DNA of 49,972 bases, counting the filler, from Sphacelaria rigidula (taxonomy: Eukaryota): the NCBI GenBank assembly GCA_964200075.2. It is 3 parts of 3 records of this genome, joined end to end, with 100 filler letters (N's around TTAATTAATTAA, not from the genome) between each part and the next. Parts side by side here need not be neighbours in the genome. Positions count along the whole stretch, not along the records: positions 1 to 16,593 come from CAXNAA020001306.1; 2 more parts are not named here. The stretch is one strand, 5' to 3'. This document shows, one piece after another, positions 1-33,384 of the stretch. The notes under the pieces are model-generated. The model was given only the letters and a program-made list of their open reading frames with translations. It ran no database searches and was not told the DNA's origin. The position numbers were made by a program, and so were the translations under genes. Within the stretch, counting starts at the first letter, position 1. Each line of letters starts with the position of its first letter.

Positions 1-37
1 CCCCCCCTCCTCCTCCCCACCCCCCGCCCCTTACACC

Positions 38-178
38 GGCCACTCGTGGATATCTTCGCCGTAGGTGTTACTCCGCAAAGGACCACGGCGTAGAAGGTCA
101 TCGCCGAGAAGGATTCGGCGAAGTATTCGCTGCTTGGCTTGCTCTGTTTCGTGCTCGCTGCGGCCTGGGAGCCACGTC
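38..178 (-). CDS. Possible internal coding exon of an unidentified gene
   Basis: Minus strand reads TWLPGRSEHETEQAKQRILRRILLGDDLLRRGPLRSNTYGEDIHEWP after a CAG, followed by GTGTAAG, with a poly-C tract upstream. No family recognised; reading frame ambiguous. Confidence 0.25.
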
Positions 179-254
179 TGCCGTTCTCGTAGTCACTGTC
201 AATTCTGGCGAGAATTTTGTGTGGGGGGGGGGGGGGGGGGGCGGGGGGGCAGCA

Positions 255-1245
255 AACGTGTTTCATTGTAACTCGGTCACATCCGTCGAACACCAAATTT
301 TTGCGACAATTATGTCGAAACTAATTCTACTTGGTTGGGTAGCTCTGAACAGAAAGCATAGAGCTCTGCGAACGTGTTCGTCGAGTTCGGCGTTGCCAAA
401 CACGGAGAAGAATGCTCAAATTTGTTTACAAAATACGGGGATAGACCAATTGAATCCCCGAATTGTCTCTTTTCCCTCTTTAGTGCCAGAAGGTGATGCA
501 TTGTGAGGCATTATGATGGATTGCGATGAGTAAAGGTTTGTGCCAGAGGCAAATATCTGGAATGTCCTAGCTCTAGGTGTTCCATTTTCGCAGCGTTGTC
601 GATTTCTGGTGATTAGGGGGCATCACTCAACGTGCGTCATAGTACCTTAATCGTAACGCATCAACACCAAATTTTGGGAGATTACTGTCAAAACGTATCT
701 CGATGGGTGAATAAAGCAGAAAAAGAAGAAAAGGTTTTCGTCGTGTACGGCGTTGCCAAACACAGAATTAATGGCGAAAAATGTTCCGAAAACCAGGAGA
801 TAGGCCATTTTCATCCCTGCTTTTTTTTTTTGCGAAACGGACCGTACTAGTGTCAAACATATTTGTACCGAAAGAGAAGGCCTGAAACGTCCCAGGTGTT
901 CCATTTTCGTAGTCATTATCGATTTCTGATGAAAAATGAATGACTAGGGGGCACCACTCAACGTGCGTGATAGAGTACCTTGATCAAAACCGATGAACAC
1001 CAAACTTTGAAAGATTACTATTAAAACGTATTTCAGTGGGTTAAAAAAGAAAAAAAATGGGAAACAATAGTTTTCGTCGAGTACGGGGTCGCCAAATACC
1101 GACTTAACGGCGAAATTTTGTTCCGAAAAACAGGGGATAAGCGATTTTCATCCCCGATTCGAATTTTTCTTCCCTTTTTTTCTTGAAAACGGACCGCACT
1201 AATCTATTAAACATTTGCACCAGAGGAGAAGGTCTGAGACGTCTA
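255..1245. repeat. Three diverged tandem units of ~330-370 bp
   Basis: Recurring blocks CGTG(T/C)(T/G)T..A, AACACCAAA(T/C)TTT, TTCGTCG(A/T)GT(T/A)CGG and ATCCCC/ATCCCT start near 257, 631 and 962. Confidence 0.8.
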
Positions 1246-1858
1246 AGGTCGCGAGAAATCAATTGCTGCGTAAAGTGTACCGTAATTGAAACAGAGGGTG
1301 TTTTGGCCGCATTTTTACGTCAATAGAGCCATACTCCACATCTACTCCTGCAACTTGGTTTAATTATTGTTCAATTTTGAAAAACTTGGGTGATAGAGGA
1401 TTGACTTGTCTTTCTCCGAATACTCTGGTCATTGTTCTACGTGTCTTGGTTCCCACGAACCAGAGTTTTCCCCGTCAGGTGCCTCAAGCGTACCTTACTT
1501 GGTACATTTACCTCTAGTATTTTCAAGGTTAAAGTTACCGTGGCGCCAGATGAACTCTCTCTCGCGCTGGCAGTTCTCGCATTCATGTTTGGTGCCGACT
1601 ATTATCAGACCCTGTCTCGAAGAAGGCTTACTGCCTGCGTGGTCGAAGGTGGAAATATTCTGCGAAAAAGAGCAACCAAGGGTCCGAATAGTCCGTTGCA
1701 AAAGTCGATCAAATTTCTGGAAGTACCGCGGGTATGATGGATGCATGCGTTATTTGTGTGCATGTATATTCCATTGAAAGGCACGAACTCAATTGACACC
1801 ACCTCTCGAATGCGCTTCGTCACTAACACAGCGCAAGGTGGCGAAATCACAATGATTA

Positions 1859-2878
1859 CGAGCTGGGCAAAAGCCTAAACACGGACTCCAGTTGTCATAG
1901 CCATATATATCTCATCGACGTAAACGAATTGGACCGCGATCCACACATAACGTTTTCGTGAGATTGAGAGTGGAGCGCTGATTGAGAGTGGCTTAGATAA
2001 TTCGCTTTAACTTCGCCAACGTTTTATTCCGTGTGTGCTCTTCTTTGCCTCCATCACTGGCGTGTGCTTACAGCTACACGTCAATATTCTAGTTAGGGGT
2101 ATCAAGGGCCCCAGTGCCAAGCTACTACGGAAAGCATATTGGGCCTCGGGGAGGGGCATTTCGGAACTGAAACGATTCATCCACTTATTAACCACTTTTC
2201 ACTCTCAATCGTACCCTCTACTCTCAACCTCACGAAAACACTGCTGCATATATATATCGTTAATAATGTAATCAAAGACCAGATGTTCATCTACCCGACA
2301 GCCCTTCAGAAGTTTTGTTGATGACTGAGCACTGTGTCGAGTAAGTGCCGTGAGTACGGAGATATCTCCTAACTAAGGTCTATTCGAGATCCTGTTGCAA
2401 TATACTTGGCAGATGGCGTTGATTGTTAGTGTGAACATTTCTCGGACACGGGGGAACAATCGATATCCTCTCACCCTAACCAGATCCTTCATCTATCGAG
2501 ATAATTGGCGTTTTCAAGATTTGACGCTAAATTCAGTATATTGCAATAAAAGCACTGAATCTGGATTCCCCACCTCAGTTTTGAGAAATTTGCTTCGAAA
2601 TTGCGTGTGGAGGATCGCAGGGAAAGTAATAAGAACCCATCCTGCGCACTGAGATTTTTTCTTTTCTTCATGAGTTGAGGGGAGGGCATTTTTTTGAAGA
2701 ATGGTTCTTGTTTTATGTCCTTCAATCGTGAAACATATAAAATAATCTCAATTAGCAGAATGCGTTCCTTGTTTTCCCCCCCGCGATATTCTGGACCAAA
2801 TTTTGAAGCACATTTCTCAGAACTGGGGTGGGAAATTCCCTTTGAAACTCACATCAATTTCTAAGCTGGCCCAGCTCG
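1859..2878. mobile_element. Non-autonomous Tc1/mariner-like element with TA flanks
   Basis: TA|CGAGCTGGGC at the left end and GCCCAGCTCG|TA at the right end. Related termini occur at 13750, 16414, 28791 and 34457. The internal segment 2340-2560 recurs at 15060-15280 (inverted) and 28975-29170. Confidence 0.6.
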
Positions 2879-3760
2879 TACACGAAAATAGTGTTTGTAC
2901 TCGGCTTTCGACTTTGTCCTTTAATAAAAGCCCTGCACACAGAAAGGTGTGTATGGGGAGAGCATTTTCTCCACGCATGTCGACAGGCAATTCGTCCTCG
3001 TGCTCCTGTTAGTTTGCTATCTCATCGTAGACCTCGCCGCTGGCGCCCGAGGCAGCAGCACGTTAATCCCCGTAATCCATGCGAGTTCTTTCTTCTCAAT
3101 ACTACAGTAAGGTACTCCGTTTACGCAACCTTCCACGATCGTACTGCCTGCACTCTCACAGTGAACTGGCTGGCTGTTCGGGCCGCCGTTCCGCGCATCT
3201 GCTACTGCGTCCCCCCACCATTCTCTCAGCGTTTGAATTGACAGCGGCTTCGATCTCCGGTATCATCGGCAAAAAACATTTCAAGCCCTGATGAGCCTTC
3301 CAGCATCTGTTCGACATTCGTCGCCTCGAATTTATGATGAATCTCATGTATATTTCATTTATTTCAACTATTAGGCGATTACAAATTCTTCTGCTCCAAC
3401 TAAACACATATTCCCTCGATTGGGAATATTCATTTTTTTCTGGAAAAAACGTGCCCATGAAGGGGGTAGGTAGTTTGTTACCATGACCCAGACGAAACCA
3501 ATATAAACACTGTTGTTAGGAGCGGTGACAGGTGTCGTTGAAAGCAAGAATAAGCAAGTGCATACTCATGCAGCACATGGTTTGGTAGGGCTGGTGAAAT
3601 GGTCGCATGTCAAAAATTACGACACCGTGTATTCAGACTGTTGCTATTTATAACGAACGTGACCCGCCGACTTTTGTTTATTGATTGCTGTCTATGTGTT
3701 ACCCTCGCTCCGTCCCGCGCATCGCCTGGTCCCCCGCAATATTTACACTCATGATGACAG

Positions 3761-4333
3761 GACCACGAGCGTGATGATGCCGCTGCCAGACGCTCGCTAC
3801 GCAAACACTCCACCACGCGAGGTCGTGACGCAAGGCATTCAGTCCTCGGGCAAGCCATGCGATCTAGCCGTGTCGTCGGCCATGAGATGGACAACCACCG
3901 GGAGCAACACGAGCATTACCACCACCAAGGCCTGGACGGCGGCGCCAAGCGGGAAAGTTCGGATACAGCAGCACTTTCCCGTGAATCGCCAAGTATTGGA
4001 AACATCAAGAGGGCGGTATCGCGAACGACAGCTGCGAGGTGGACCAACGCGGAAGTTCCTTCGGCTTCTAGGTTTGGTGACAACTGGAGCGCTGCGGAAA
4101 ATGGCAATAGTCATGGGGATGCCGAATTACATGACGCAGACCCCCCGTCGACGCAAGGAGAAAATAGCAGTGATCGAGGACCACATGGAGGACGCACGGG
4201 GATGGGGGAAACAAACGATGGTTGCGAAAATGGAGCTGATACTGCTCACAGTGACAGCAGAGGGAGGAAGGAAAACCGACATGATTTCGAGGCGAGTGAA
4301 GTCGTAGAAAAAGCTGTTCGCTTGTTTCGATGA
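3761..4333 (+). CDS. Low-complexity coding-like segment, probably the upstream part of the 4590-6902 gene (frame-disrupted)
   Basis: Open frame from CAG|GAC at 3761 (DHERDDAAARRSLRKH...MDNHREQHEHYHHQG...) with the same charged, disordered composition as the downstream ORF. 4330-4590 contains stops and frame changes. Confidence 0.35.
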   Translation, partial: DHERDDAAARRSLRKHSTTRGRDARHSVLGQAMRSSRVVGHEMDNHREQHEHYHHQGLDGGAKRESSDTAALSRESPSIGNIKRAVSRTTAARWTNAEVPSASRFGDNWSAAENGNSHGDAELHDADPPSTQGENSSDRGPHGGRTGMGETNDGCENGADTAHSDSRGRKENRHDFEASEVVEKAVRLFR

Positions 4334-4589
4334 CAACATACAAGCACGCGAAAACGACACACAGTTCAATGATGCAGTCCTCCAAAATCCTTGTACCTAC
4401 GAGATGTGCCAGTCACTACGCCCGATATCTCTGAACGTAGTCATAGAGCAATATTAATAGTAGACTACAATACCAGCAACGCTAACCGGGATGTGCACCT
4501 CAATCTCATGGATCATCCTACGAAACCCGAACGAGGCACAAGTGATTCGGGGACGCTAACAAGATGAGCGTCTTATTGGTGGCGTCTTC

Positions 4590-6530
4590 GTGAGGTATTT
4601 TCACCAACATGTGAAACACTGCTGTCGATGTCGCTGCCACCACCTACAACAGGAACACACCTCAGCGAGGACACTCGAACAGGTATCCTCTACGGCCTCG
4701 ACGAAGTCACGAAATAAATCAAAGAAAGCGACGACAGCGGCGGCGGCAAATCTACAAGAAAAATACCCGCATGAGGATCCGTCGATGTTGTTACCGGAAC
4801 CGCCGTCTGAATGTATCGCCGATACTCATGGCGTTACGAGGATAGTTGTGCCACCCTGTGCGAAACGATCACATTTGGATGTCCTTCCCCGTCCGTCACC
4901 GAGCACAGCGTATTCCCTCCACGAACTCAACAAAGCTGAGGCATGTTCTCTTGCTTCTTCGGCAACCGGATCTCGCGAAACATGGAGCCAACAATCATTC
5001 CCTGTAAGAGAAGAGGCAGATATTTGTGGCAATATCTTGCCGAAGCAGAAAATGCGGTCGACGCTAGATAAGGTGGCCGATGTTACGGCACCGATGACAT
5101 CACCACAGAGTAGTCGCGAGGACGTCGTTGAGGATGGTCCTTTCGATGCTTGTGAGCTAGACCAACAAGATCTGGACGAGCAAGACCGTACAAGTTTACG
5201 GCTTTCGGGGGAGGGGGGGAAATATGTAAACGTCAATACAAGAGACATTGTCAAACGTGAGAGTAATGTTTCGCAAGATACTAACAGCGAAGGTACAAAC
5301 GAAGACCACACGACCACAGGGGAAGTCCATGGCCGGGAACCCATTTCCCTGACAACCGCCGGCAAGACCCTCAAGGCGCTAACGCTAAGCATAGAGAGCC
5401 TGGTATCTTGGGGAGCCGGCGAGGATTCGGTGACAGGAGGTGATCACAAGGCCCCATCACCTTTCTCAATCATCCTGGACAGTTACACCTCCGCCGCGGG
5501 AGTAGCGACGCTGCGGGGTTCGGTGCAAGCCACATCGACTGAAGCGGTGGTGGCTGCATCGGATGGACACAAAGCTTCTCACGATGTACAACCGCTCGAG
5601 AGTTTCGAGCTCGGCACGCGTTGTCGTGCGGTATTGGATCTCATCAGCCAGTACGCACATGAAGTCCTGCCTGAACGGCTCCTGTCAGGTCTGGTCACCG
5701 TCGGCAAGGTGCGTGCGCAGCACCGCAAGAGGGGGCCGCCGGGAAGGGTTGAGCTGTTTGACGCCTTGTTTTCTCACATCCACCGTTTGACCGCCTCGAG
5801 AGAAGCCAACCCTGCTGCGGTGGCCGCAATCTTTGCCCCGTGTTTTTTTGAGTCATTCCGAAAGGAGACACACCAAGCACACGTTGATGGTGGCAGCGGT
5901 GACAGAGGGGACTGCGGTATCGAGCGACGTTTTCGACGGAAGATTTTGTCTCTCTTGGAAGAAGCGGCGGATCCGGATGGACCGACGCCAAATCGAACAC
6001 CACCGATACGAGGTGCAAGTATAAGGGGTGTTGGACATCCTGAGCTAGGCATCACTGGCTGGAGCAGCAGCAACGTTTGTACTGGTGGGGACCGCCACGG
6101 GGAAGAATTGGACAGAAATAATAAAAATAGCGGTACGAGAGCAAAGAGTAGAAACCACAGCAGTGACGACGGTGCCTTGTGGACATCGAAGCGCCGCACC
6201 AGCAGCAGCAGTGATGTTCCTAACGCACCACGGGTTCGGCAAGCGCAACAAACATCGTCAGCGACACTGGTACAAGAACAACCGTCTTTTCAGCAAGAAT
6301 GCCCACAAAAGGGACCACTACCAGTGTCGCCAGTGGATTTCAACACCATGGTGTCGTCAGCTGGGAGGCGAGGGTCGGGGAGAGCTTCTAAAACCACTCC
6401 CTCGGGGGTGCTCTTGGGCTTGAGCAGCAGGAAAGCTGGCAAGAAGAAGGAGTCTCTTGACTTGTCTGCTGTGACCGGCATACTAACTGATTGTTTCGGA
6501 GACAATGGTCATGACCTACCGGAATTCAGG
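4590..6530 (+). CDS. Large exon of a mostly disordered protein with a possible degenerate RhoGAP-like domain
   Basis: ~650-codon open frame ending at a phase-0 donor AGG|GTATGC (6531). LFDALFSHIHRLTASREANPAAVAAIFAPCFF resembles the RhoGAP C-terminal helices (L..L..HL..V.....N.M...NLA.VF.P.L). True 5' boundary uncertain. Confidence 0.7.
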
Positions 6531-6872
6531 GTATGCGCGACAACGAACTTGTGGGGGAAGTTAACCGTACATGTTGAAGTTTTGAATATAATCGCTGCGG
6601 GAGCTCAGACCTCTCTCCTCCAGATATTTTTCAGGTGTTGGCCATCGACTGCTTTTCGAATGTATTCATGCGTCTGTACTTTAATTTTGGTTTCTCATTG
6701 AAGATGGGGCTTTGAATTGCACCCTATGAGGTGCAACGCACGAAAATATCGAATGAAGTAAAGTAGACACAATCCTCAAAGGTGTGGTCAACGTTGACAT
6801 TCGATACGTATAGCGCTATTTGAACCCCTCCCACCCCCGCCCTGCGTTCTGTTGCTTCCTCTCGGTGAGAAG

Positions 6873-6902
6873 GCGGATGAGCTCTTAGACGACGAGTTTT
6901 AA
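6873..6902 (+). CDS. Probable terminal exon (ADELLDDEF*) of the large-exon gene
   Basis: Pyrimidine tract then AG|GCGGATGAGCTCTTAGACGACGAGTTTTAA, in phase 0 with the 6531 donor. Confidence 0.55.
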   Translation, partial: ADELLDDEF

Positions 6903-8106
6903 GGAAAAACTGGACGTTTCCATTACGTGACCTATTTTGCTTCTAAAGGAGTGAGGGGCAAGCACAGGCTGGCTTCGCAGTCTAATATTCGGTAGCTATG
7001 CACTACGAGCAATGGGAGCATCATTACTGTTGGGCTCATGCAAGGAAACGCCTTTCTACATTCTACTTCTTCGTGGGGCGTCATTGGAGCCGTGCATGGG
7101 ACTCGGGCCTTTCGAATAGCTATTTCTGAAGGAATTTTCCAACCCTTGCGAAGATGTGCGGACCTCGTTCTGGATGGCGTTGACACTAGAATACTCAGGA
7201 CAAATACTTGACCGAAATCCGTCAACCGACTCGGTAATCAGAAGTATTTTTTCTCCTCTTTTTCTTGTTTACGATCGCGCTTGCGTATTTTCTTCGCGAG
7301 TTCACGGTGCGGTGGTGTGTTCGGGTTCTCATGTTGCAAACAGTTGCGGAACAACATTGTTGCCGGTTACTCTAAGCCACAATCGGCAGACGGATTGCAC
7401 GGCCTGTAGGTTGACATCCAACTACATGTGGCTTTATCGAGAAACTTTCTTGAACGCCAAAAATGAATCTAGCGTCACATTTGCTCTACCCAGCACCATA
7501 GCATCGTCGTACTGGTCCGCTCGATGTTGAGATATATAATACAGAAAATAACATCAGCCCCTCGCACGATCCGGTAGAGACAGACATCCTGGCACCGAGC
7601 GACCGCTCTCATCGTTCGCATACACAACAAACGATACCGCTTAAACCTCTACAGCTATTGGCTGACGCAGACTGCTACCGACATCCTACCGCACGCCATG
7701 TCCACGGCAATATTACGCTTCGAAACATCTCCCGTGCAGCACAGCACGGCGAGTCTTCACTTCCTAACAACACTGCGACTTTGACCCGCTCGGCCGTCCA
7801 AAGTACTCCCTGGTGGGTCTTGTTCAGAAGATAGATGGGACCCGTAGGAATAGACTCGCTTTCACGGGTCGAGCGCGTGTTCAAATAATCATCAGCGTCA
7901 ACCTTTCATCGAGGGTAATGCATTTGGACTTCGGTAGCGTTCCAGACACCCCATTTTGTAGAAAAGAAGCAACGCACGTCTCATATTTTGTCCCATACGT
8001 AGCACCATTATTCGAAAAAAACGTGAAGAAAAACAGGGAGCAATACACATGAATATTCCCACTTACCCCGTTTCCCCAACGCTGACCTGATAAACATATC
8101 AATATT

Positions 8107-9441
8107 TTAGAACGCGTACTCCGTAAGCGCTCCTGGTCTTACGGCGAGGCCGGCCGACGCGTCGACAACTGCCCCGTGAAACATAGACGCAGCGAGAGAG
8201 GAACACATCCAGTATACGGCCTCACCGACCTCCTCTGGCTGTATGAGCCGCCCTTGCGGCAGCGCACGCACAAAGTGCTCCCGCTCCATCTGGCTCATGT
8301 TGTCAAGGGTACTCGCCTTAAACATGTCCGTCAATGTCGCCCCCGGAGAAAGGCACACAAAGTCTACGGCAGCGTCAATCTCGGTTCGACCAACAGCACT
8401 TGTAACATCATCCGCATTTTCGTCACCGCCACTGCTGCTTTTATGGCGAGGGCGTCGTCGAGCGGCGAAGTGCCGACATGCGTAGGCCAGCGCCGCTTTG
8501 CTCATCGCATCTGCCGCTCGAAAGGCGGGGAACACAGATTGGGAGGCCCCGCCAACGGAGCCTATGAACAACACCGTTTGCTTGCCGGTCACTGGGACTG
8601 CTGCCGAACCACTCGCACTTCCCGGTGCTATTGGTGCCAATTTGTTGTCTTCTTCTTGGATTTTCGCCTTCTTTTTCTTCGCCGACATATTCTCACCAGT
8701 AGTATCTGAGTAATCGCGCACCTGAGATTGCGGCGGCGGCAGTGGCAGCGGCATCATCATGGGCAAGAGGGCCTCCGTTAGCCACATTGGTCCCAGAGCG
8801 TTCACCCGCATAAGCGCCAAATCCTCTTCCGCCCTTCGGTAGGCTTCGTCGCTGTCGTGACCCTTATCTTTATTTTTCTCATCCTGATTTTCTGACTGTT
8901 GCTGCTGCATTCCTTTGTAGTTCTTTACCGTTGCCACGCCGAGAGCGGCATTGTTGATCAAGGCGTTGAGCTGTCGGCCGTTTCGCCACGTGTCAACCTC
9001 CGCCGCAAAAGCGCGGATGTCGTGGAAGTCTCCTTGATCGAGGTGGCGACACTGCACGCGACCCGGGGGCTGAAAGGACATCTCAACACGCTCGGCAGAG
9101 TCGCGGTCCGAACAGTAGGTGAAGAGAACGCGCGCGCCGCGCTTTGCGAAGGACTCGACGCATGCCTTACCTATCCCCTTCGAGCCTCCAGTCACCACCA
9201 CAAGGATATCACTGTCAGATTCAGGAGGGGCAGAATCCATAGTTGCTCCAGCCTCTATGCTGACTACACCGCGCTTGTGTTTACGAGTGGCATCTTCCTC
9301 TTTGCTGTGAGGCTCGATGCTGTCGGCACCGTTTCTTACCACACTTTTTCCTTCGGCAACGCCCGTTTCTTCTGTCGCAGCTAGGACCGGCTGGGTCATG
9401 CCTTCAGCAACTCCAGCTGCTGCTACAACAGCGGTCTCCAT
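8107..9441 (-). CDS. Short-chain dehydrogenase/reductase (SDR), single long ORF, atypical DxxxK active-site motif
   Basis: TGGSKGIG (TGxxxGxG), LINNAA, VNALGP, FIGSVGG (catalytic Ser), DAMSKAA at the YxxxK position, LSPGATLTDM, GRLIQPEEVG. First in-frame ATG at 9441; the open frame extends to 9510. Confidence 0.92.
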   Translation of the reverse strand: METAVVAAAGVAEGMTQPVLAATEETGVAEGKSVVRNGADSIEPHSKEEDATRKHKRGVVSIEAGATMDSAPPESDSDILVVVTGGSKGIGKACVESFAKRGARVLFTYCSDRDSAERVEMSFQPPGRVQCRHLDQGDFHDIRAFAAEVDTWRNGRQLNALINNAALGVATVKNYKGMQQQQSENQDEKNKDKGHDSDEAYRRAEEDLALMRVNALGPMWLTEALLPMMMPLPLPPPQSQVRDYSDTTGENMSAKKKKAKIQEEDNKLAPIAPGSASGSAAVPVTGKQTVLFIGSVGGASQSVFPAFRAADAMSKAALAYACRHFAARRRPRHKSSSGGDENADDVTSAVGRTEIDAAVDFVCLSPGATLTDMFKASTLDNMSQMEREHFVRALPQGRLIQPEEVGEAVYWMCSSLAASMFHGAVVDASAGLAVRPGALTEYAF

Positions 9442-10039
9442 ACATGAACGCTGCGTACACCGATTGTCGTAACGCTGCGCTTGTTTTACCTTATTGCTTA
9501 ATCGATTCAATGAAACAGGCAGAATATTCAGTACCTTTGTGACCCTTTTCCACCAAGCCAGCGCTAGATCACACCTTATTTGGCGATCCCAGGCAGAGCA
9601 TTATCCATCGCGGGCCTCCAAGAGCTGCGAGACTGTGTTTATCCCACTTCTGAACAGGTTCTTGTGAATTTGGAACCAGTTCTAATCCATTGAGTTTCTG
9701 CACAACGTTGGATCGAGGTTGGAGCAGTATGTTTCGGAATTTGCTCTTCTCGTGAATCTAGTGGAATCCCTGTTTTCAAATTCCTCGGCAGGCTTAAACG
9801 CGCAATGTGAAGCAAAATGCTACTCAACCTGCGGTAAGAATGGAGACGATATGTTCCTCCTCACCACCTCGCGTAGCTTTTCTCTATCCTAGTGACATCT
9901 GCGCACCACTCGCGACAGAAAAACGACAAACAAACGCCATCGATGATAATCCAAAACAGTAATAATGCTGTACCTCTGGGTGGTGGGTGGGATGGAAACG
10001 AAATATTATTTGTTCTACTTGACAATATGGCCGAAAAGT

Positions 10040-10285
10040 GCGTGTGTGTGTTGCCACCCCAGTCTACACCCCATCTGTTTATATGTCGGCGCATCAGATT
10101 CCCTGCGGAGTCAGTTGAAGTGCGACAATCAATCAATCACAAGAACCAAATAAAACCAGCCGGGGTCACACAGGAGGACGACCAACACAGGACTTTTTTT
10201 CTTTTTTTCTCTTGTTTTAGTACTCCCCCCCCCTTCCTTGTGCGGTGCTTGCCTAATTTTTATTGCGAGAGGGTTCAGTTGCACT
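10040..10285 (-). mobile_element. Partial copy of SINE family B carrying a short AAGTGCGACA(ATCA)n insert
   Basis: CCAGTCTACACC, CAGCCGGGGTCACACAGGAGG and TGCGGTGCTTGCC...GCGAGAGGGTTCAG match 38172-38430. Confidence 0.6.
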
Positions 10286-10697
10286 TTCGTAAAAAACAAG
10301 CTGTGCACACATAATTGTAATAGATGGATCGACTGTACCCAAGTCGTGCAACAATGCGTGCGCGCTGTCGGCTCTCTACAAGTCATGTACTACAATAAGT
10401 ACTCTGTGCTATATATTCACCAAAAGCAATCAGTCTGAGCACACAAAAGTATATATATGAGGTCACTGCCTGCAAGCCGTATGCTATGCGCGTGCCATGT
10501 GCCGGCTCCCAAGGGTACCGTATGACATTATTTGACCGGCTCTGTTGTGCACGGATAAATTCATCATGTTCATGCTCGGCGGGTCTGCACTAGTGTACGA
10601 GTACTGTGAAACTGGTTCTACATTGCCAAGGTGTTTTATTTATCAGCCTGCGGAGGCACAAATTTTCTGGGATTCTGCATTGGGTTGGACTGGCATG

Positions 10698-11079
10698 TAG
10701 GCCCTGACCGATAAGGCATGCCTTCCTTTTTGCCTTGGATCCCCTTTTCGAAAAGGGGTTGCCTGATGAGGTGTTCTATGCCTGAGATACCTTATTCAAC
10801 AAAGCCAAACACATTATACCACAGAAACAGTAGCAATAAATCAAGCTTATGACAACGCCCACTCGAATTATTAGGGTAACCGGAGTGATTGTTCAAGGCA
10901 AGTAAGTCTAAGGCAAGTCTAAGGCAAGTCTCAGGCATCCCGAGCTATAAACTAAGGCATTTCAGGTATGAGTACGGGATAAGACATGCCTTAGTAGTTG
11001 CCTGAGGCCAACTATTTTGCCCGAGACGTGCCTTAAATGGTTTGCCTTAGACCCCTTCGGCACGCCTGATCAGAGCCTA
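10698..11079. mobile_element. hAT-like MITE with a perfect 8-bp target-site duplication
   Basis: CTGGCATG at 10690-10697 and 11080-11087; termini TAGGCCCTGA... and ...TCAGAGCCTA; many internal AGGCA/TGCCT motifs. A related fragment lies at 21950-22090. Confidence 0.85.
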
Positions 11080-11205
11080 CTGGCATGTCTGCACAGATGT
11101 CTGATAGAACTGGTTCTACTCTCCCGGCAGGTTCTCTTTCCTGCCTTCGCCGGTAGAAGTAAGGTCGCAACCCGTTTTATCTTCCCGCAACAGCTACTTG
11201 CAGAC

Positions 11206-11418
11206 ATGACTTCGCCTGAGAAGACAGTCGTGCTGGATATTGTGGGCCTGACTCAAAGCCTGATCAGCGCGGATCACACGCCGTTTCTCTACGGCTACTT
11301 GTCGCAGCCGGACGTCCTCAGCAGGGATGTCGAGCCTACGTTCCCTGCGCTCACTTGCCCCGGACAGTCGACCTACCTCACGGGCGCAGGACCCGCGTCG
11401 CACGGCGTGACAGCCAAC
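11206..11418 (+). CDS. eboF: First coding exon of an EboF-like nucleotide pyrophosphatase/phosphodiesterase (alkaline phosphatase superfamily)
   Basis: MTSPEKTVVLDIVGLTQSLISADHTPFL...VEPTFPALTCPGQSTYLTGAGPASHGVTAN then a phase-0 GTGAGT donor. Fits the EboF N-terminal pattern as I recall it (KTVVL.VVGLT..L.G.HTP.L...P..PAVTC..Q.TYLTG..P..HG..ANGWY), including the nucleophile Thr. The next exon (expected GWY) was not found before the contig end. Confidence 0.8.
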
Positions 11419-12200
11419 GTGAGTGGAGCTGTGTTGATTGGAGTTGACGGGAGTTTGCCGCTGTAAATTGTATTGTGGTAGAGTGTTGAGCGCTTATTTC
11501 ATTATCAATGTTTGCTCTAACAAAATCCGCACAGAACCTTGCAATCTTTCAGGGTGTGGTACGCCTCTTTTTCCAAATCCAGGAATCGGTATTAGATTAC
11601 TTTCGTCTAACATTTTCGCAACTTCCCCCCCCCTCCCCGCCAGGGAAGGGTGCAGGAAGAGAGTGGTTTTTTATCAAGTCAAAAGGACACAGCATACCAG
11701 AGCATTGGCCCAAGTATCTGCTCTCATAGCCCACATATGCGGCCGCCACCCGCGAGATCTTGAGCTACGACCGTACAGATGTGGTTTACGTGCTTTGCGT
11801 CATTTCCACAGGAAGTTTCCCAACACGTTCCTGATTCGAAGTGGCGGAGATACCCCGTATCGTACAGCACTGAGTGATTGTCGCCGTCATTCGGATATGT
11901 ATTCGGTGATCAAAAACCAACATGCACCACCTCTCTGCTTCGCCATTCCCACCCCCACCCTACCCGACCACCACACACACACATGTACCCATAATCTCAC
12001 GTTTAACAGTACCGCCGATGATTGTACAGCCCTCATCGTAGCCACAACACAACCAACAGGCCCTATTACGGGGGAACATCGTTACTAGGAGTCGTTACGT
12101 GAACGCACTTAACTCGAGCGTCTATGGGTCGAATTCGTCAGACGATAGCTCGGGTGATCCGCAAAGCCCGCGTAATCAACTGCCCAGCAAGCCAGCAAGG

Positions 12201-12281
12201 ATGTTGTTGTTGTCGTTGTTGTTGTTGTCGTTGGTGCTGTCTTTGTCACTGTTGTTGTTGTTGTCGTCGTCGTCGTCGTCG

Positions 12282-12312
<31 letters not shown>
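12201..12312. repeat. (GTT/GTC)n trinucleotide microsatellite forming the end of an interspersed repeat
   Basis: Direct inspection; the adjacent 12300-12480 matches 39040-39245, which starts with a shorter (GTT)n. Confidence 0.95.
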
Positions 12313-12584
12313 CTTCACATTAAAAACCGTCCCGATATCTGCGCGGTACATCCGTACTGGGCATCTGACGCGGACGCCTTTCGTGTCACAGGCTAGCTAC
12401 TGTACCTAAAATAAGGTATGAGGAAACCAGACAGAACAAGAAAAACAAAAATAGACGCGATACAAGCAAAACAGGAATAAAGAAGAAAGAGGAAAGATAG
12501 TTAGTATGGCCAACCTCAAAAGACCCGGTGCCGCACAAGGATGAACAAAACAAATGACCCAGAAGTTAACGGAAATCTCGGAGG

Positions 12585-13045
12585 TTTTCCTGTTGGTGTC
12601 TCTCCAACCCTGATTCAGGGTTGAGATATGACATGCCATATCTCTGGCGTGGCGGCGTCGAATTCGAAACACGGTAGCTCGGATGAACCGCCAAGTCCTC
12701 TCATCGCCGGCTAGCAAGAAAAATGGGAAACAAATGCACACAACAAGTTAGGGGACATGTGTTTCGTGGTTTTTTCCTGTTAGTGTCTCTCCAACCCTGG
12801 CCTAGGCGTTGACATATGGCATGACATATTCTCGGCGTGTTGGCGTCGAATTCGACAAATGATAGCTCTGACGAACCGCAAGGTCCACGTGATCACCGGC
12901 CAGGAATAAAAAACGAGAAGAAAAAATGGACACAAAAAATGAAGAGACGTTTATTTCTTGATCTTCCCTGTTGGTGTATCTACAACCCTGGCTCAGGGGT
13001 TGAAAGATGACATGCCGTATCTACGGCGTGTTGGCGTCAAACTCA
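12585..13045. repeat. Three tandem ~190-bp units
   Basis: TTCCTGTT(G/A)GTGTCTCTCCAACCCTG...GTTGA.A.ATG.CATG...GGCGTCGAATTCG repeats at about 12587, 12774 and 12964. Confidence 0.85.
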
Positions 13046-13494
13046 ACGACAGCGTGTTGACGTCGGAAAAATATCGTTCGTTAAAATAGAAAGCCTCCTA
13101 CAGACACCAGCACAGTGCAACATACACAGTAAGAACAGTACAGTACACCCAGCATAAGAGTATACCAAGCAGTACAACCAGAAGAGTGCACAGCACAGAC
13201 CGTACGGCCTTCGAAGAGTTAGGCGCTGAAATTTCAACACGGCATTTTTATCATCAACACGCGCAACTTGTACAAAGGTGCAAACAAAATAAAAAAAAGA
13301 AGAAATCCGGAGCTATTTGAAGTTTAAGGGAAAACAGGGAATATGCTATAACTCCGTGAAAATCAAGAAATACAAATCAAGAAATACCGCGGCACCTTAT
13401 TACACTTTTTGGGCACTTGCGTGCAGGAGATCCTGGCAAAATTTCGGCCGAAAGTAACTCAAATTGGGCGCAGCAGGACACTTTTCGTGTGACA

Positions 13495-13620
13495 CCGCTG
13501 CGCCCGTTTAATCCAAGTGATACAGGAGACTCCAGTTATGAAGGTCACGAGTTCGAATCCCGACAGATTCTCTTTTTTTTCGTTCCGTCGTTTAGGTCAT
13601 ATATAATGTAGTACATTTGC
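13495..13620 (+). mobile_element. tRNA-headed SINE-like element, family C
   Basis: AAGTGATACAGGAGAC...GAGTTCGAATCCCGACAGAT (Pol III B-box-like); second copy at 30860-30990. Confidence 0.6.
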
Positions 13621-14344
13621 TTCATTTTTTTTCTCTTTCAGTCGCCGTGCGTTACCAGGTTGGTCTGTAGTTCACAGCGATGTGCTCAAGTCGGGCTGCT
13701 TTTGTAAACTTGATAAGTTGTGGTGTGAAAATCAAATGCGGGATTTACTGCTGGCCCAGCTCATACAAGCAGCGCAGTACAGTCAGTACAGCACAGTACA
13801 GTACGTGCTATATGTTTGAGTGTACGGTATATGAACAGCGCAGTGCAGTGCAGTATACGCAGAAAAAAATGGGTACACAGTCCTCAGCAAGGGCTGCCTA
13901 CTGTGCAGCAAGGGCTGCCTGCTGTGCAGCAACAATTTCTTCGCGTCTTTCCACCCCCTTCTTGATGTGCACGAACCGCTTGCCTCTTCTCGCCACCTTT
14001 GGCGCAGTGCCAGGGAGCGCTGCTGTTTTCCCACCTCTTTTGCGGGGCATCGCTGTGGGGTACGCTGTAATCTGAAGCCCCCCACCCACTTCAGCTGGGA
14101 ATATCTCGGGCGCATCTTCAAATTTTGAACAGCAGTTTCTTGAGCTCCCTCGATCATATTTCACGGTTTCGCCGACGTGCCGTTTGCATGCTTTTTCGGG
14201 GATGTGGGTATGATGTTCCTCCCCCTGTACAAAAAACCGCGTTGCCAAAGGTGAAACCTCCACCGTTGGAAAGCCACAGTGACCAGCTTTCTTACGATGT
14301 GCCCAATGCATTCGACCTGATCCAGCCTAGACGCGACTTTGTAG

Positions 14345-14625
14345 TTTTCAGGCCCCGCCTGACCTCAATATTGAGAATTGGACTTTCAAATTTGGTATGG
14401 AGAATGGATAGGGTATCATAAAAAATATATGTTGCGGGACCATGAGTTTTTTTTTCATCCAAAGGCAATAAATAACCAGTAACCAGTTTTCAGTAAAATG
14501 CCCTTGACTCATGAAACAAAGAACTCATGGTCCCGCAATACATTTTTTTTATTATGTCCTATCCGTTCTCCGTTCCAATTTCAGATGTCCAACTCTCAAA
14601 TCTGAGGTGAGACGGGGCGTTCTGG
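14345..14625. mobile_element. Long imperfect inverted repeat (foldback) belonging to the TA-CGAGCTGG element family
   Basis: TGTTGCGGGACCATGAGTT pairs with AACTCATGGTCCCGCAATACA, and GAGAATTGGAC with GTCCAACTCTC. Homologous arms at 16470-16530, 29185-29260 and 34510-34730. Confidence 0.7.
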
Positions 14626-16274
14626 CAACCGGGCCGGTCGAAATTCGGAACAGTATTTTGAAAGTTCGTGTGGAGCCTCATGAGGACATAATGAACAAAC
14701 GCAATGGGATAGGTTGATCCTTTTCATTTTTCTCACGAGTTGGGGACGTTTTAGTGTGGTAAAGAACATTTTTTCACGAGAATGCCCTCAGCTCTCCAAG
14801 AAAATAAATAAAGGCTCATTTTTTGTGTCTTAGTCTCAGCATGACTTTGCAATTTTCCATGCTAAGTTCTGAAACACAATTCTAAAAATTGAGCTGGAAA
14901 ACTGAGATGAAGGCCAAAAACAACGTTAATTTTTCCTTGAAACGCCCCTAGAAAACGAAAAAAAATCTCAAGAAACTCTTTTTTTCATTATACCCTAGCG
15001 ATTCCACATACCAGATTTCATAGCCTAACCCTAAAACATTGAGACGCAAAATCCAGATCTCGTACATTTAGTGTCTCTGCTCGTAATATATTGATTTTAA
15101 TATATAGTATTATGTGCGTAATCTCTCGAGATAGATCACGAATCAGGTGAAGGTGGGGGTATCAATCGTTTCCCGTGCTCCAGGGAATGTCCACACCACA
15201 AACGTCACCATCCGCTGTATATATCGTTGGGGGTTTCATATAAAATTTAGTATGGACCCTATCTCCGTACGGCTCCGGAATTACTAAACATGGCATTTAA
15301 TCAATGAGGGAACATTGTCCCAGGCTTTTGAGCAGATGGGCATTTTTCCCTTGATTGGATGATTAATTCGATACTTGTGGTGAGCCACCGCTGACGAGCG
15401 TGGTAACAATACCGCAGGTATCAACACCATGGGTCTCGCACGTGTGGAGGTTTTGAGCAAGATGGTAAAAAACAAAGAAAGATCCCGACGCTAACCATGA
15501 TTTATTAGTATGAGCAGATTAGGACTTCCAACCACACGGCCAACCGTAACCACTGTTGATAAAAAAAGGAAAACCTTGGCCGTTTTGACGCCAACCGGAC
15601 AGCGCTACATGAGTAGACAGTCTACCCCAGAGAAGTAAGGACCAGACCGAGCAAAATGGCGCCCCGTCACTGGAGTAACCCCCCACCGGATGTATAGTAA
15701 CGAAGTCAAAATGATCGATTCCTAGCTCGATGATCCTCGCCGGCAGTAGTGAGGCGTTGGCCGCTTGTGACTCATGGACAGCACGCTGGCGGTACGCATC
15801 AACTCGAGAGCGAAGGTCGTCGTTCAGGGCCATGGCTTGTTCCTGGCGCGTATCGACGGCGTACCCGTTGTCGTTGAGGGTGTTTGCTGCGTTGACATCA
15901 TGCTGTTGAATGCCTTGCGGTAGCCACTTACGATGTTTTCGCACCCTGCTTGACATATCTGATTTCTTCGTTTCACGACACTTCGACGAACGAGGGTGGA
16001 GGCTTCTATTCTTTCGTTTTCATGACGTGTCTTTCATTATTTAATGCTTTATTTCAGTTTTTTTCTTGATTTTTGGAGTCGCAGAACACGCCGCTACATG
16101 GGCGCTTCCATATCATGTGAGGATAGTATGATAGTGACGGTAGTGGAGAAGGCGAGCATACGTCTGTGACCACGGGTTCGAGAGATCGGGCTCATGTGCG
16201 AACATAATAGTAGTAGTATTATAAGACGTTCCCAAAGTCGAAATTCCCAAACGCGAGATTCCCGGTATATTTAA

Positions 16275-16410
16275 CCCTTAGACAGCGATCCCCCCGCAGG
16301 TGGACTGAGATGGACTATGCCACTCTTGAGATGCAAAACAGCTCTTTTCTCGCTACACAAAACGCCTTTTTCATCATCATGTGGATATTTGACATCTACG
16401 TGAAAAAATG
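16275..16410 (+). mobile_element. Left end of a piggyBac-like element, interrupted by a mariner-like terminus at 16414
   Basis: TTAA|CCCTTAGACAGCGATCCCCCCGCAGGTGGAC matches the left end at 27646. Confidence 0.65.
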
Positions 16411-16593
16411 TACTACGAGCTGGGCCAGCCTAGAGGCGGGTTTGAGGTTTGCAAGCCTATGCTCCCGCGAGTATTTAAGAGTTGGACCCTGAAATTTTGT
16501 ATGGACAATGAATAGGGCATGAAAAAAATAAGGGCAATGGCCTAGAAAAGGTATACCTTCTCGTTTTTTGCCTGAGAAAGGTACGAAAAATGG

Positions 16594-16693
16594 NNNNNNN
16601 NNNNNNNNNNNNNNNNNNNNNNNNNNNNNNNNNNNNNTTAATTAATTAANNNNNNNNNNNNNNNNNNNNNNNNNNNNNNNNNNNNNNNNNNNN
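16594..16693. other. Artificial contig spacer (44 N + TTAATTAATTAA + 44 N)
   Basis: Exactly 100 nt with a six-frame-stop linker; identical to 33285-33384. Confidence 0.98.
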
Positions 16694-26630: not shown

Positions 26631-27047
26631 GCCATATCTCTCTCTACCATGTGTTACGGACAACGGCTTCTCCCAGCTTTGAACTCAACCATTGCCTTCA
26701 CACAAACCTCACTCTATGGATCTGTATTCATTGTATGATGCTGTGTGTCCTGTTTGTATTGGAGTAGCTGCAACACTACGGGCTGGATTGTTGCTGTCAG
26801 GTACTGTAATGTGATATAATCAATAGTATAATAGCTGCAACAGCTCGATCGCACAGCGGTCCGAGTTAGTTTCTAAAACAGATTCCGCATTCCTCATGTC
26901 ATACTACAATTTGACACAAAAAATTCAACATGACAGGTGAAGCCGACGACCCCGCCAGCTCAGCCAAGGTCGACCTCAATCTTTTTTGTGAGACCAGCTG
27001 TTGCTTAGATATCTGGCGCCTAACTGCGAGGGTGACCCCGAGAGGAT

Positions 27048-27329
27048 ATGAAGCAGATAATTATGTTGTCAGTAGTAGGCGTGGTGGTTGTGGGGGTGTC
27101 AACGCCCGCGCAGGGGTTCGTTGGGTCGGCGGCGAGTACGAAACCTAAGCCTTGGATATATCAACCTGCAATGCCTGCAACTGCTGTCGTGGGCATCTCG
27201 TCAGCGGCCACAGTAGGTGCTCGAGCAATTCGGTACCGGCGGAATATCGCAAGAATGGCGACAGTGGAGAGGATCGGCAACGAGGGAAGTGTTTCTGAAT
27301 TAACTTTCGACGCCGAGTCGTGGAAGAAG
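27048..27329 (+). CDS. Exon 1 of a plastid-targeted carotenoid cleavage oxygenase (RPE65/ACO/CCD family)
   Basis: Signal peptide MKQIIMLSVVGVVVVGVSTPAQG|FVG (ASAF-type), then an Ala/Ser/Arg-rich transit peptide, then FDAESWKK and a phase-0 GTGAGT donor. Confidence 0.85.
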
Positions 27330-27649
27330 GTGAGTTATAGTTGTGATGTTACGTTCGAAGGGAGGGGTGGTATGTACTTGGCGTGGCAAGCACAGGATAT
27401 TTTCTAATTATATACCAATGATGACAGTACATCACCGAAGTTATATGAATCTTTGAAGGGCTGCGCCTGCTTAGAGTCACGTTTTTGAACACCCCCCCCC
27501 GTAACGAGAGGCTTTGTGGAGTCGATAGAATCGGTCATGCAAGTAACGACAAAAAATCCGGCACCCCATTCGTATAGGATTATCCTTTTCATGAAATTGT
27601 AGAAGAAGTCGGTTTCTGTGTTCTACCTACCACAGCACACATCACTTAA

Positions 27650-30990: not shown

Positions 30991-32473
30991 TTTTTTGGGC
31001 TAAAGACAAAAGTGAGTACATTACCTATTTCAGCCCAAACGAATCGTGCAAGTTGGAGCTGTCCGTGCTAGGCCCGAACCACTCGAAAATCGATCCCGAC
31101 GCAAAGGCAAGGCACCCACAGCCAATGTAAAGCACGTACGCCAAGTTTTCGTGGAGAAAAAGCGCAAGTTAGGGCCGAATAGCACCGCGGGAAACAAAGA
31201 CCTCGCAGAGTACCCTATTTTGTCCGATAATGGAGTACACGTCTTTTGCCCATTTTTTGTTCATTTTTTCATCTTTCGCGGGAGAGAGCGCATCAGCAAG
31301 TTGGTACACATTTCGCAGCGACATACCTACGTCGGGATGATTCGGAAAATTGAAAACGTTGTTGTGTGCCCGCGGCATCCACGTTGCTTTAGGCTGTCCC
31401 AGCTTGTACTCGTGGTATATTTTAGCCACGCCCAGACTGGCCGCATAGTGTGACTGCGACAATCCGACCGCATCGAGCAAACATGCACGAGTGTATGTGC
31501 AGACTTTTTTCCTTCCCACGTTGTTGGGCGTACTTTTCCCCCAGGGTTGGCTTCAGTTTGCGACGACGCTGTAAAACATGCCACTCACTGCGTAAGCCAA
31601 GCAACCAGGTTACTGGGAGTTCCTCCGCTTGCGTTTGTTTTTTGCAGTAACCATAATGGTGGTCGAGCTAGATCATATTGGGCGAGGTAGAGAACCCGAA
31701 TTCCGCGCGAAGGGGACGATCGTACTTCGTAGTGTTTATATCGTGAGACACCCATGAGGCGGCATGTAACCCGTGGATGTCTCGGGAAGTGGCGAAACCA
31801 GAAGTTGAAGAGACTCATCGTAGGCTGTCATCCATACGCAAGATAATCAGTACGGTTCGGACCCAACAATATTAGCTGAATGTAGCTCACCCTTCATGCG
31901 ACTCGCCAAACATACCACCGCGCTTCGCGCTTGGTGATTGCGAGCCTGACCCGGCGTGCTCCGTCCCGGCTCTGAAGGGATTCGAGGTCAATGGTCTCAT
32001 GACCACAGCATGCACTATCATGAGTACATCCACCTGTCGTTAGACTCTAATCGATCTTTTGGTCAGCCCCCGTTTTCACGCTTGTCAGAACCGAAGCCAA
32101 CACAACTATCCCCTCTCTCTCTGGATCCGAACCCACACCGTACTCTGCGAAAAGTCTCCGACCACTTACTGGAGCAGTTTGACCACCGGGGCGCGGGGGC
32201 TATCGACCTAAGCACACATGCAGGAATGAATTGTTTGAGTGGGAAATGGAGAATAGTCCCATTGTTTTTACTCCTTGTTTAATGAACAAAATGAGGTGCG
32301 CTTCAGGACTGTCTCATCATGGTCGCAGTGGTCCTTTTTTGCTCGCGGTCAGAGATGTATGTTCCTGGGCGATACGTATTCACCTGAGGGAATTCATCCA
32401 TGTGTGTCTCTGCCGCGCGGGCGCACGTGTGCGTGAATATCTGTGCATGTGTGTGTTGGCTCTTGTTTTCCAG

Positions 32474-32584
32474 GGCTACTCAAGCGCGGGACCTGAGGAT
32501 CAGTACCTCATGAAGCCGAGCATGGGGACCATCCCGAAGGACATCGAGGGCACTCTTTACCAGAACTGTCCGGCAAAGTACAAG
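32474..32584 (+). CDS. Exon 2 of the carotenoid cleavage oxygenase
   Basis: TTTTCCAG|GGC...AAG|GTATAC, 111 nt in phase 0: GYSSAGPEDQYLMKPSMGTIPKDIEGTLYQNCPAKYK. Spliced to exon 1 it gives W..GY.S...E..Y......G.IP.D..GTLY.N.P, the N-terminus of ACO-type enzymes. Confidence 0.88.
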
Positions 32585-33284
32585 GTATACTATATTTCAT
32601 ACAGTACACATGCGTGTAAGAAAAGGGTTTTTTGTTGTTCATCGTTTAACTTTACGTTTATAATCAGATCCGCCGCAGGAAATAGTTGGACCAAATCCAG
32701 ATAATTTTGGACACTTCTCCGTGCTAGTGCAAGGCGCTCCCCCCCCCCCTCCCCCCTCTCCGGAATCTTTGGCACGGGTACTGGACACATTTGCCGCGAA
32801 ATGTCGATACGCCGCACGAGTAAAGAGCGCAGCATCTCTGTGCTGTCTGGCTGCAGTACAGGATACGACAGCAGCAGAGCCGGAAAAAACATCAAATTCG
32901 TGCAGCGTCTTTCAGACGTCGGCAGTGGATAATGTTTTTTCCTGCATGGTTCGACAGCCAGTAGGGCTCTCATGTACTACAGTACTACGACAGACGAGTG
33001 TGGAACGAAAGCACACGGGGCCAGGCAGTGGATCTGGTGATTGACAGGGCACCATCAACCTACCAAAGGCAGCATTCAACAGCATGCAGCCAGCATCGAA
33101 CGGGTCCAGTCAACAATGGTTATGTTGATACACTTGTTTCTTTTATCTTTTTCTGTCCATTTTTTTCTGCTCCCTTTTTTTCTGTTCCATTTTTTCCCCC
33201 TTATGTTTGTTGAGGTTTCGGTTTTTTGTCGTTTTACTTTTTTTTTTCTCCTTCCCGTTTCTCGCATTTAGTTTGTAATAGCAC

Positions 33285-33384
33285 NNNNNNNNNNNNNNNN
33301 NNNNNNNNNNNNNNNNNNNNNNNNNNNNTTAATTAATTAANNNNNNNNNNNNNNNNNNNNNNNNNNNNNNNNNNNNNNNNNNNN
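33285..33384. other. Artificial contig spacer (44 N + TTAATTAATTAA + 44 N)
   Basis: Identical to 16594-16693. Confidence 0.98.

Follow-up and report, generated by a model that had tools for sequence, protein, structure and literature searches.

The question raised by this locus is why, in the brown alga Sphacelaria rigidula, an atypical short-chain dehydrogenase/reductase (SDR) gene stands head to head with an eboF gene, and whether the two encoded enzymes work together. The locus lies in a stretch of 49,972 nucleotides (the window; assembly GCA_964200075.2, here G000), which consists of contigs joined by spacers; positions 1-16593 are a single contig (C1306) of this fragmented 244-Mb assembly. 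As the pair proved to be conserved and co-distributed far beyond the brown algae, we consider it likely that the SDR and EboF are functionally linked and act in one pathway. The eboF gene was known already; what this analysis adds is the SDR partner and the finding that the pair is conserved in brown algae, on an amoebozoan-like contig and in a fungus. Neither the partner nor the conservation was found in print, with subscription journals and bioRxiv supplements outside the reach of the search (the thallusin supplements could mention eukaryotic eboF), and ebo is absent from the text of bioRxiv 10.1101/2024.02.19.579948. The pair comprises the following features, in window coordinates:

8107-9441, minus strand: SDR gene, intronless, 444 amino acids (aa), of an Asp-type (DxMSK) subfamily, with low-complexity insertions
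9169-9192, minus strand: Gly-rich dinucleotide-binding motif TGGSKGIG of the SDR, residues 84-91
8497-8559, minus strand: active-site stretch of the SDR, with Ser295 (8557-8559), Asp311 (8509-8511) and Lys315 (8497-8499)
6861-9564, minus strand (strand inferred from the open reading frame, ORF): extent of the SDR transcript contig, an unspliced single piece with a 3' untranslated region (UTR) of ~1.2 kb
9565-11158, no strand: interval between the transcript ends, 1,594 bp, repeat-bearing
11159-11418, plus strand: eboF exon 1, with a 5' UTR from ~11159 and coding sequence at 11206-11418, which gives 71 aa of PF01663
11236-11238 and 11353-11355, plus strand: first metal-ligand Asp11 and nucleophile-position Thr50 in eboF exon 1
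11419-16593, plus strand: eboF intron 1, which opens with a GTGAGT donor at 11419 and extends past the end of C1306

The initial annotation had described two enzyme genes that diverge from an interval of ~1.76 kb on one contig, and this layout was confirmed: the SDR gene and the coding part of eboF exon 1 lie 1,764 bp apart from ATG to ATG, both are transcribed, and eboF splices in frame. The transcript evidence consists of contigs from three runs guessed to be RNA (2 studies; X2 and X8 are possibly one data set), none of which is on record as RNA, and the contigs carry no strand. The eboF transcript contigs span 11159-11419 and then leave the window reading in frame G-F-Y-D-R-T-Y-C-E-V, which matches EboF; spliced eboF contigs of 2,131-2,475 nt exist in these runs. 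The last eboF exon was located on the minus strand of another contig (C9978, match at 8128-8463), and the assembly yielded neither exon 2 nor the middle exons. Because the spliced contigs of 2.1-2.5 kb exist, the missing middle exons are read as an assembly gap. In the three runs the SDR contigs had depths of 109-113 and the eboF contigs of 143-146; contigs cannot rank genes, so these values do not serve as co-expression evidence. Within the interval that separates the transcripts, DNA-run depth rose to 16,061 (bin 9810-10263) and 643 (bin 10718-11171) versus ~30, and an 11-bp tandem repeat is present at 10904-10937.

The synteny check proposed in the initial annotation came out in favor of the pair, which is adjacent in brown algae and on a distant metagenome contig. 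In Ectocarpus sp. CCAP 1310/34 the two proteins are consecutive entries (CAB1109105.1 and CAB1109106.1), both on a 204,612-bp contig, and parent contigs of equal size were obtained for SDR and eboF in Scytosiphon, in three more Ectocarpus records and for one Logan contig of a close relative. Paraphysoderma carries the SDR (KAI9145468 and KAI9145476) and eboF (KAI9145489) on a scaffold of 810,121 bp, the SDR accessions being 13 and 21 apart from that of eboF. The metagenome contig (L007) has an SDR gene at 1748-2683 on the plus strand and a three-exon eboF on the minus strand, head to head with ATGs ~550 bp apart; its SDR is 35% identical to that of the window, and both of its genes group with the amoebozoan Planoprotostelium in separate trees. 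The SDR/eboF neighborhood is conserved in three supergroups, at varying tightness. A gene order common to a brown alga and an amoebozoan-like organism is rare, and it points strongly to joint function or to a joint transfer from one eukaryote to another. Doublets were also seen: Blastocladiella emersonii (P0333) has two identical eboF entries five locus tags apart, and the two SDR entries of Paraphysoderma (P0171), eight accessions apart, are identical. Each doublet may be a small cluster that was duplicated, and further pathway genes could come to light there.

The co-distribution extends further than the adjacency. An eboF gene is recorded, here or in PMC5133447, in 9 of the 13 named genera whose SDR belongs to the eukaryotic clade, i.e., Ectocarpus, Scytosiphon, Phaeothamnion, Bangiopsis, Chondrus, Planoprotostelium, Sorochytrium, Paraphysoderma and Hyaloraphidium; Ascophyllum, Choristocarpus, Heterococcus and Bicosta have the SDR and no eboF record here. 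Cladosiphon, Pylaiella, Tribonema, Rhodosorus and Blastocladiella have eboF and no named SDR, in a data set where clustering hides names. The two genes are unlinked, or their linkage is not established, in Chondrus, Bangiopsis, Planoprotostelium, Sorochytrium and Hyaloraphidium.

Phylogenetic analysis placed the eukaryotic SDRs in one clade (support 100/99) in a tree of 42 rows, from which the outgroup, the longest branches and Heterococcus were left out; a first tree, made by a quick search and containing long branches, supported the clade at 87. The sampled eukaryotic EboFs also form one clade (SH-aLRT 100) in a quick tree that holds no florideophyte or eustigmatophyte rows. Both clades split into PX-clade, Stylonematophyceae, fungal and amoebozoan groups. 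The window SDR groups with the brown algae (100/96). A union of fungi and amoebozoans, supported at 96/93 in the SDR tree, is what descent would predict, but the distribution as a whole is very patchy, and the pair may have spread either by descent and loss or by transfer between eukaryotes. The earlier proposal that both genes are of bacterial type was supported. A viral origin of the pair was rejected, viral contigs having given 4 weak SDR matches (27-29%) and none for eboF. The SDR filed under the choanoflagellate Bicosta minor (P0453) is nearly identical to a metagenome sequence (L004) and groups with PX-clade algae, which may reflect either contamination or transfer.

The window eboF encodes a member of the EboF family, with a PF01663 domain and its closest similarity to EboF sequences. 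Its exon 1 product is ~70% identical to Cladosiphon and Pylaiella EboF and 44-57% to bacterial EboF, and it is assigned to the eukaryotic EboF clade via brown-algal orthologues, which exon 1, the spliced continuation and the last exon match. Nuclear eboF without other ebo genes has been described from PX-clade ochrophytes, red algae including Stylonematophyceae, and Plasmodiophora (PMC5133447, section 3.5, Table S3); the window gene is a member of that set, and the Ectocarpus EboF cluster contains CBJ28409, an entry of that paper. The account of eboF in that section names no partner and concludes that EboF works without other Ebo proteins, whereas here it is accompanied by a co-inherited SDR; in addition, the eukaryotic EboF clade is now extended to Blastocladiomycota, Hyaloraphidium and Planoprotostelium. 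In the EboF orthologues, bacterial and eukaryotic alike, the D-xxx-H motif of nucleotide pyrophosphatases/phosphodiesterases (NPPs) reads D-xxx-Q and S-D-H reads S-E-Y. The metal-ligand pattern of the two-zinc NPPs and phosphonoacetate hydrolases is thus absent, while the alkaline-phosphatase fold and the Thr nucleophile are retained and the nearest solved structure is a phosphonoacetate hydrolase. Given these altered metal-binding motifs, an ordinary phosphodiesterase activity of EboF appears doubtful on sequence grounds.

The SDR, a single-copy gene in the assembly, combines a classical fold with an unusual active site. It has the Rossmann fold and the TGxxxGIG motif of classical SDRs, and of their catalytic Ser and Tyr-x-x-x-Lys it retains Ser and Lys, with Asp311 at the Tyr position. 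The same replacement was present in 62 of 64 strong SDR matches, and at 80 bacterial loci the position was occupied by Asp in 68 and by Glu in 1, with 11 unparsed. The subfamily is a distinct one, with 53 proteins at E <=1e-30 in a profile search across 1.84 billion representatives. Atlas and PDB searches yielded generic SDRs at 15-19% identity as the closest solved structures, and no close relative of the Asp-type SDR among them; for EboF they returned NPP/PhnA matches alone. Pocket motifs (NNAALG-ATV, SVGGG, FP, GL-VRPG) are common to the eukaryotic SDR and the kynurenine-linked bacterial enzymes. An acidic residue in place of Tyr is known to switch an SDR to ene-reduction (C=C), as in isopiperitenone reductase, which resembles the algal enzyme in having an acidic residue at the catalytic Tyr position that alters the reaction type, but is a plant SDR of another subfamily with Glu for Tyr where the algal SDR has Asp (PMC4988501). 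Imine reductases use Asp as donor (PMC7540600).

The bacterial relatives of the SDR were examined at 86 loci, of which 80 were the best of 204 genome matches and 6 came from metagenomes; related actinomycetes are strongly represented, and the counts are not independent. Within 6 kb of the SDR, a pyridoxal phosphate (PLP) enzyme or decarboxylase was present at 76 of the 86 loci and a tryptophan dioxygenase (TDO) at 62; an AurF-like oxygenase gene was near the SDR at 58. TDO-SDR and SDR-aminotransferase fusions were also found (P0179, P0207, P0223). SDRs of this subfamily occur in about 100 Ralstonia megaplasmid records. In strain GMI1000 the gene order is hmgB, hmgA, LysR, a glyoxalase-fold gene, TDO, a FAD enzyme, a class V PLP enzyme, the SDR and an aminotransferase, so that the SDR is the fifth of six operon genes downstream of hmgB, hmgA and the LysR gene. 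This fifth-gene SDR is 36% identical to the Choristocarpus SDR (E 4e-46, a pairwise comparison outside the tree) and has the same DGMSK site; the window SDR shares the DxMSK signature of these operon and kynurenine-cassette enzymes. From the gene order we infer that the GMI1000 operon is hdf. Work by Delaspre et al. in 2007 reportedly tied the Ralstonia hdf operon (RSp0693 onward) to 3-hydroxy-oxindole. The GMI1000 gene order agrees with RSp0690, RSp0691 and RSp0693 = hdfA and with a six-gene operon for a tryptophan derivative.

Several further arrangements were observed among these relatives. A four-gene actinomycete cassette (L077-L152; e.g., L110 9941-13875 and L136 8228-12012) consists of the SDR, a PLP enzyme resembling 1-aminocyclopropane-1-carboxylate synthase, the AurF-like oxygenase and TDO; a single literature search found no product for it in print. 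In 5 of the 86 loci (L115 9971-13921, L126, L123, L113, L134) a PLP decarboxylase takes the place of the aminotransferase, which would fit a kynuramine-type product, and in Pseudomonas and Rahnella this variant carries a cyclase-type formamidase and TDO. Nine Ralstonia records (L172, matches H16-H24), several of them from ginger-family hosts, hold two hdf-type SDR copies, and the copy that was read is ~87% identical to the usual one. On a Shinella plasmid (L173 5959-8012) an ABC transporter gene is followed by the SDR and directly after it by kynureninase, which suggests uptake and breakdown rather than synthesis. The SDR-aminotransferase fusion of the chrysophyte Chlorochromonas danica is probably a separate gain, since it falls outside the eukaryotic SDR clade.

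The initial annotation had proposed to check whether this SDR subfamily co-occurs with ebo genes in bacterial neighborhoods, and no enrichment was seen. An eboF match was present in the flanks of 1 of the 86 bacterial SDR loci (L136), truncated and ~8 kb off. Anywhere in the genome, eboF was found in 31 of 80 SDR-bearing genomes versus 107 of 151 evenly drawn Streptomyces (including the unpublished G604); within Streptomyces it was rarer in SDR-bearing strains (14 of 37) than in that even genus sample, a lower share that may reflect relatedness only. As related strains are not independent, the claim is limited to no enrichment of eboF in SDR-bearing bacteria, and an SDR-ebo link in bacteria was rejected. 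Since no such link was found among the bacterial loci and genomes searched, the SDR-eboF pairing appears to be eukaryote-only among searchable data. The L136 locus itself bears a broken ebo remnant at 114-2530, with the truncated eboF beside a transposase-like gene, and this Streptosporangium has a whole ebo operon elsewhere.

The algal pair therefore resembles two bacterial systems and coincides with neither. The hdf operon and the actinomycete SDR-PLP-AurF-like-TDO cassettes contain an SDR of the same subfamily, whereas the algal SDR sits beside eboF instead, and searches of the assembly recovered neither TDO nor the bacterial PLP partner (indoleamine dioxygenase was not searched, and intron-rich genes can be missed). 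The gene logic of the TioG/TioH step to 3-hydroxyquinaldic acid is alike, combining TDO and a kynurenine aminotransferase with an oxidoreductase that has a quinaldate as substrate (PMC4052310, PMC9962454); this likeness is one of analogy, and the 6 TioH matches among 401 genomes around G001 do not enter as homology evidence. The bacterial and plastid ebo operon contains an EboF orthologue with the same invariant residues as algal EboF. In bacteria, eboB, eboC, eboE and eboF are each needed for thallusin, the core of which is itself a hydroxyquinaldate and the ring of which derives from a cyclitol and L-aspartate (bioRxiv 10.64898/2026.05.21.724671). In the alga, by contrast, the partner is an SDR from outside the six ebo genes, and the search of the genome for ebo homologues that the initial annotation had suggested gave 0 matches each for eboB, eboC and eboE (an exon-by-exon search of an incomplete assembly; eboA and eboD were not searched). 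S. rigidula is thus not demonstrated to make thallusin, and the pair is not a member of the ebo operon. The joint pathway first proposed for the two genes was upheld as far as a functional link is concerned, conservation and co-distribution making this likely, but its cyclitol or prenyl ebo chemistry is unsupported, as eboB, eboC and eboE were not found.

As an explanation for the pairing we tentatively put forward an old, eukaryote-assembled two-enzyme module for a tryptophan-derived aromatic compound. Eukaryotes would have built it from two bacterial pathways, taking EboF from ebo/thallusin and the SDR from tryptophan/kynurenine cassettes such as Ralstonia hdf. The SDR would act as an NAD(P)H-dependent reductase, the site of which (Ser...Asp-x-Met-Ser-Lys) would suit an activated C=O, C=N or C=C bond, and its substrate would be an o-aminoaryl or N-heteroaromatic compound of the isatin/oxindole or kynurenine/quinaldate type. 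Isatin is a bacterial antifungal, and its reduction product is 3-hydroxy-oxindole. EboF, with its two-zinc site rebuilt, would perform a neighboring step on the same compound and not act as an ordinary phosphodiesterase. That the SDR substrate belongs to the isatin-, kynurenine- or quinaldate-type rings, with EboF doing the adjacent step, is a plausible though uncertain prediction from protein sequence. The hydroxyquinaldate core of thallusin and the altered tryptophan breakdown caused by the ebo-like EDB cluster (PMC12904256) would both fit and are taken as indirect hints. Because the assembly gave no match for TDO or for the bacterial PLP partner, the module would slightly more likely process or detoxify a compound from associated bacteria than make one de novo.

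The functional link could also hold with a different chemistry. EboF might couple a cyclitol ketone (inosose) with an aspartate derivative, the reaction that has been proposed for the thallusin core, with the SDR making the ketone or reducing an imine or enone, which would lead to an algal or fungal aminocyclitol or hydroxyquinaldate. This comes near the idea of the initial annotation, and the essential role of eboF in building the thallusin ring from cyclitol and L-aspartate (bioRxiv 10.64898/2026.05.21.724671), the conservation of EboF residues between bacteria and eukaryotes and an Asp donor suited to imine reduction all speak for it. We nevertheless regard it as doubtful: the incomplete assembly yielded no match for the bacteria-essential eboB, eboC and eboE, the other ebo genes are absent from these eukaryotes in the survey of PMC5133447, and the bacterial kin of the SDR adjoin tryptophan genes. 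The pair might instead serve another substrate, such as an endogenous metabolite, phosphorylated or lipid-linked, on which hydrolysis by EboF would be followed by reduction by the SDR. Such a role would agree with the retained alkaline-phosphatase fold and Thr nucleophile, with phosphonoacetate hydrolase as the nearest solved structure, and with the fact that both enzymes switched partner on entry into eukaryotes; it is improbable in view of the altered EboF ligands for ordinary phosphoester hydrolysis and of the pocket motifs that the SDR has in common with kynurenine-linked enzymes.

Two further explanations do without a common function. The genes may have traveled together as neighbors, from one donor or an early eukaryote, with unrelated functions and an order kept by slow rearrangement or shared regulatory DNA. 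Adjacency was indeed lost in at least four lineages, no third pathway gene stands beside the pair in the window, and no bacterial genome with the pair was found among the SDR loci and genomes searched. However, both genes are retained where they are unlinked, though most eukaryotes gave no match for either, and in Chondrus the SDR is accompanied by an eboF that arose separately, which looks like a functional replacement; we therefore rate this explanation as unlikely. That the two are chance neighbors, the brown-algal adjacency being ordinary synteny and L007 a coincidence or a chimera, is highly improbable. The one distant head-to-head arrangement that was read is on an assembled metagenome contig, but the odds of one particular head-to-head partner are ~1 in 10,000 (a rough estimate from gene numbers), both L007 genes belong to the amoebozoan group in separate trees, and the Paraphysoderma genes lie close together on one scaffold.

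Several observations weigh against the tryptophan-derived module and the inheritance it implies. The same-contig evidence for the named genomes consists of equal contig sizes and accession order, not of read DNA; the Scytosiphon accessions are 78 apart and those of Chondrus ~5,000 apart, and in Planoprotostelium, Sorochytrium and Hyaloraphidium the two genes are on different contigs. The distant head-to-head order is known from L007 as the one metagenome contig: among 10 eukaryote-type metagenome SDR loci, 1 has an adjacent eboF, 7 are too short, and 2, the red-algal-type L005 and L011 with several kb of upstream sequence, have none. Bidirectional promoter pairs have start sites within ~1 kb and are co-regulated; at the S. 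rigidula locus a shared promoter stays hypothetical: 1,594 bp with high-copy repeats separate the transcript ends, which, being contig ends, reveal neither start sites nor expression levels. The eboF of florideophytes is given as a separate gain from bacteria (PMC5133447), whereas the SDR of Chondrus falls inside the eukaryotic clade. Strict co-inheritance is thereby broken, although a needed partner may also have been replaced. In bacteria EboF has no tie to tryptophan genes, the indirect EDB effect aside, the bacterial SDR neighborhood need not carry over to the eukaryotic enzyme, and the substrates of both enzymes are predicted.

On its left side the pair is bordered by an ORF at 4560-6701 (plus strand, 713 codons), which is convergent with the SDR 3' UTR and covered by sparse transcript fragments. 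Domain searches gave no significant Pfam or NCBIfam match and a RhoGAP-like lead alone (score 0.88), and the ORF was dropped as a third cluster gene. The right side of the locus ends within eboF intron 1 at the contig end. Eukaryotic metabolic gene clusters are sets of at least three adjacent, unrelated enzyme genes that serve one pathway; with two enzyme genes only, the SDR/eboF locus is a two-gene module and not a cluster in this strict sense. The spacers at 16594-16693 and 33285-33384, each composed of an N-run, TTAATTAATTAA and an N-run, join separate contigs, so genes past 16593 are no demonstrated neighbors of the pair. The next contig bears exons at 27036-27407 (plus strand, plastid-targeting presequence-like) and 32183-32704 (plus strand, weak RPE65/carotenoid-oxygenase match, E 0.044), which possibly belong to one carotenoid cleavage gene.

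The function of a lone nuclear eboF in unrelated eukaryotes has been open since 2016 (PMC5133447), and a single co-inherited partner makes it a testable two-protein problem. EboF is essential for the seaweed morphogen thallusin, its reaction being open (bioRxiv 10.64898/2026.05.21.724671), and through its bacterial members the Asp-type SDR family links to tryptophan-derived small molecules of bacteria. In a bolder and rather doubtful extension, seaweeds, zoosporic fungi and amoebae would share a head-to-head module that converts tryptophan- or quinoline-type signals or antibiotics of bacteria, with isatin, oxindoles, hydroxyquinaldates and thallusin precursors as candidate targets. If this were true, the SDR would be the first member of the Asp-type SDR family, the pair would provide a two-protein assay for the EboF reaction, and the module would be what the eukaryote contributes to a chemical exchange with its bacteria.

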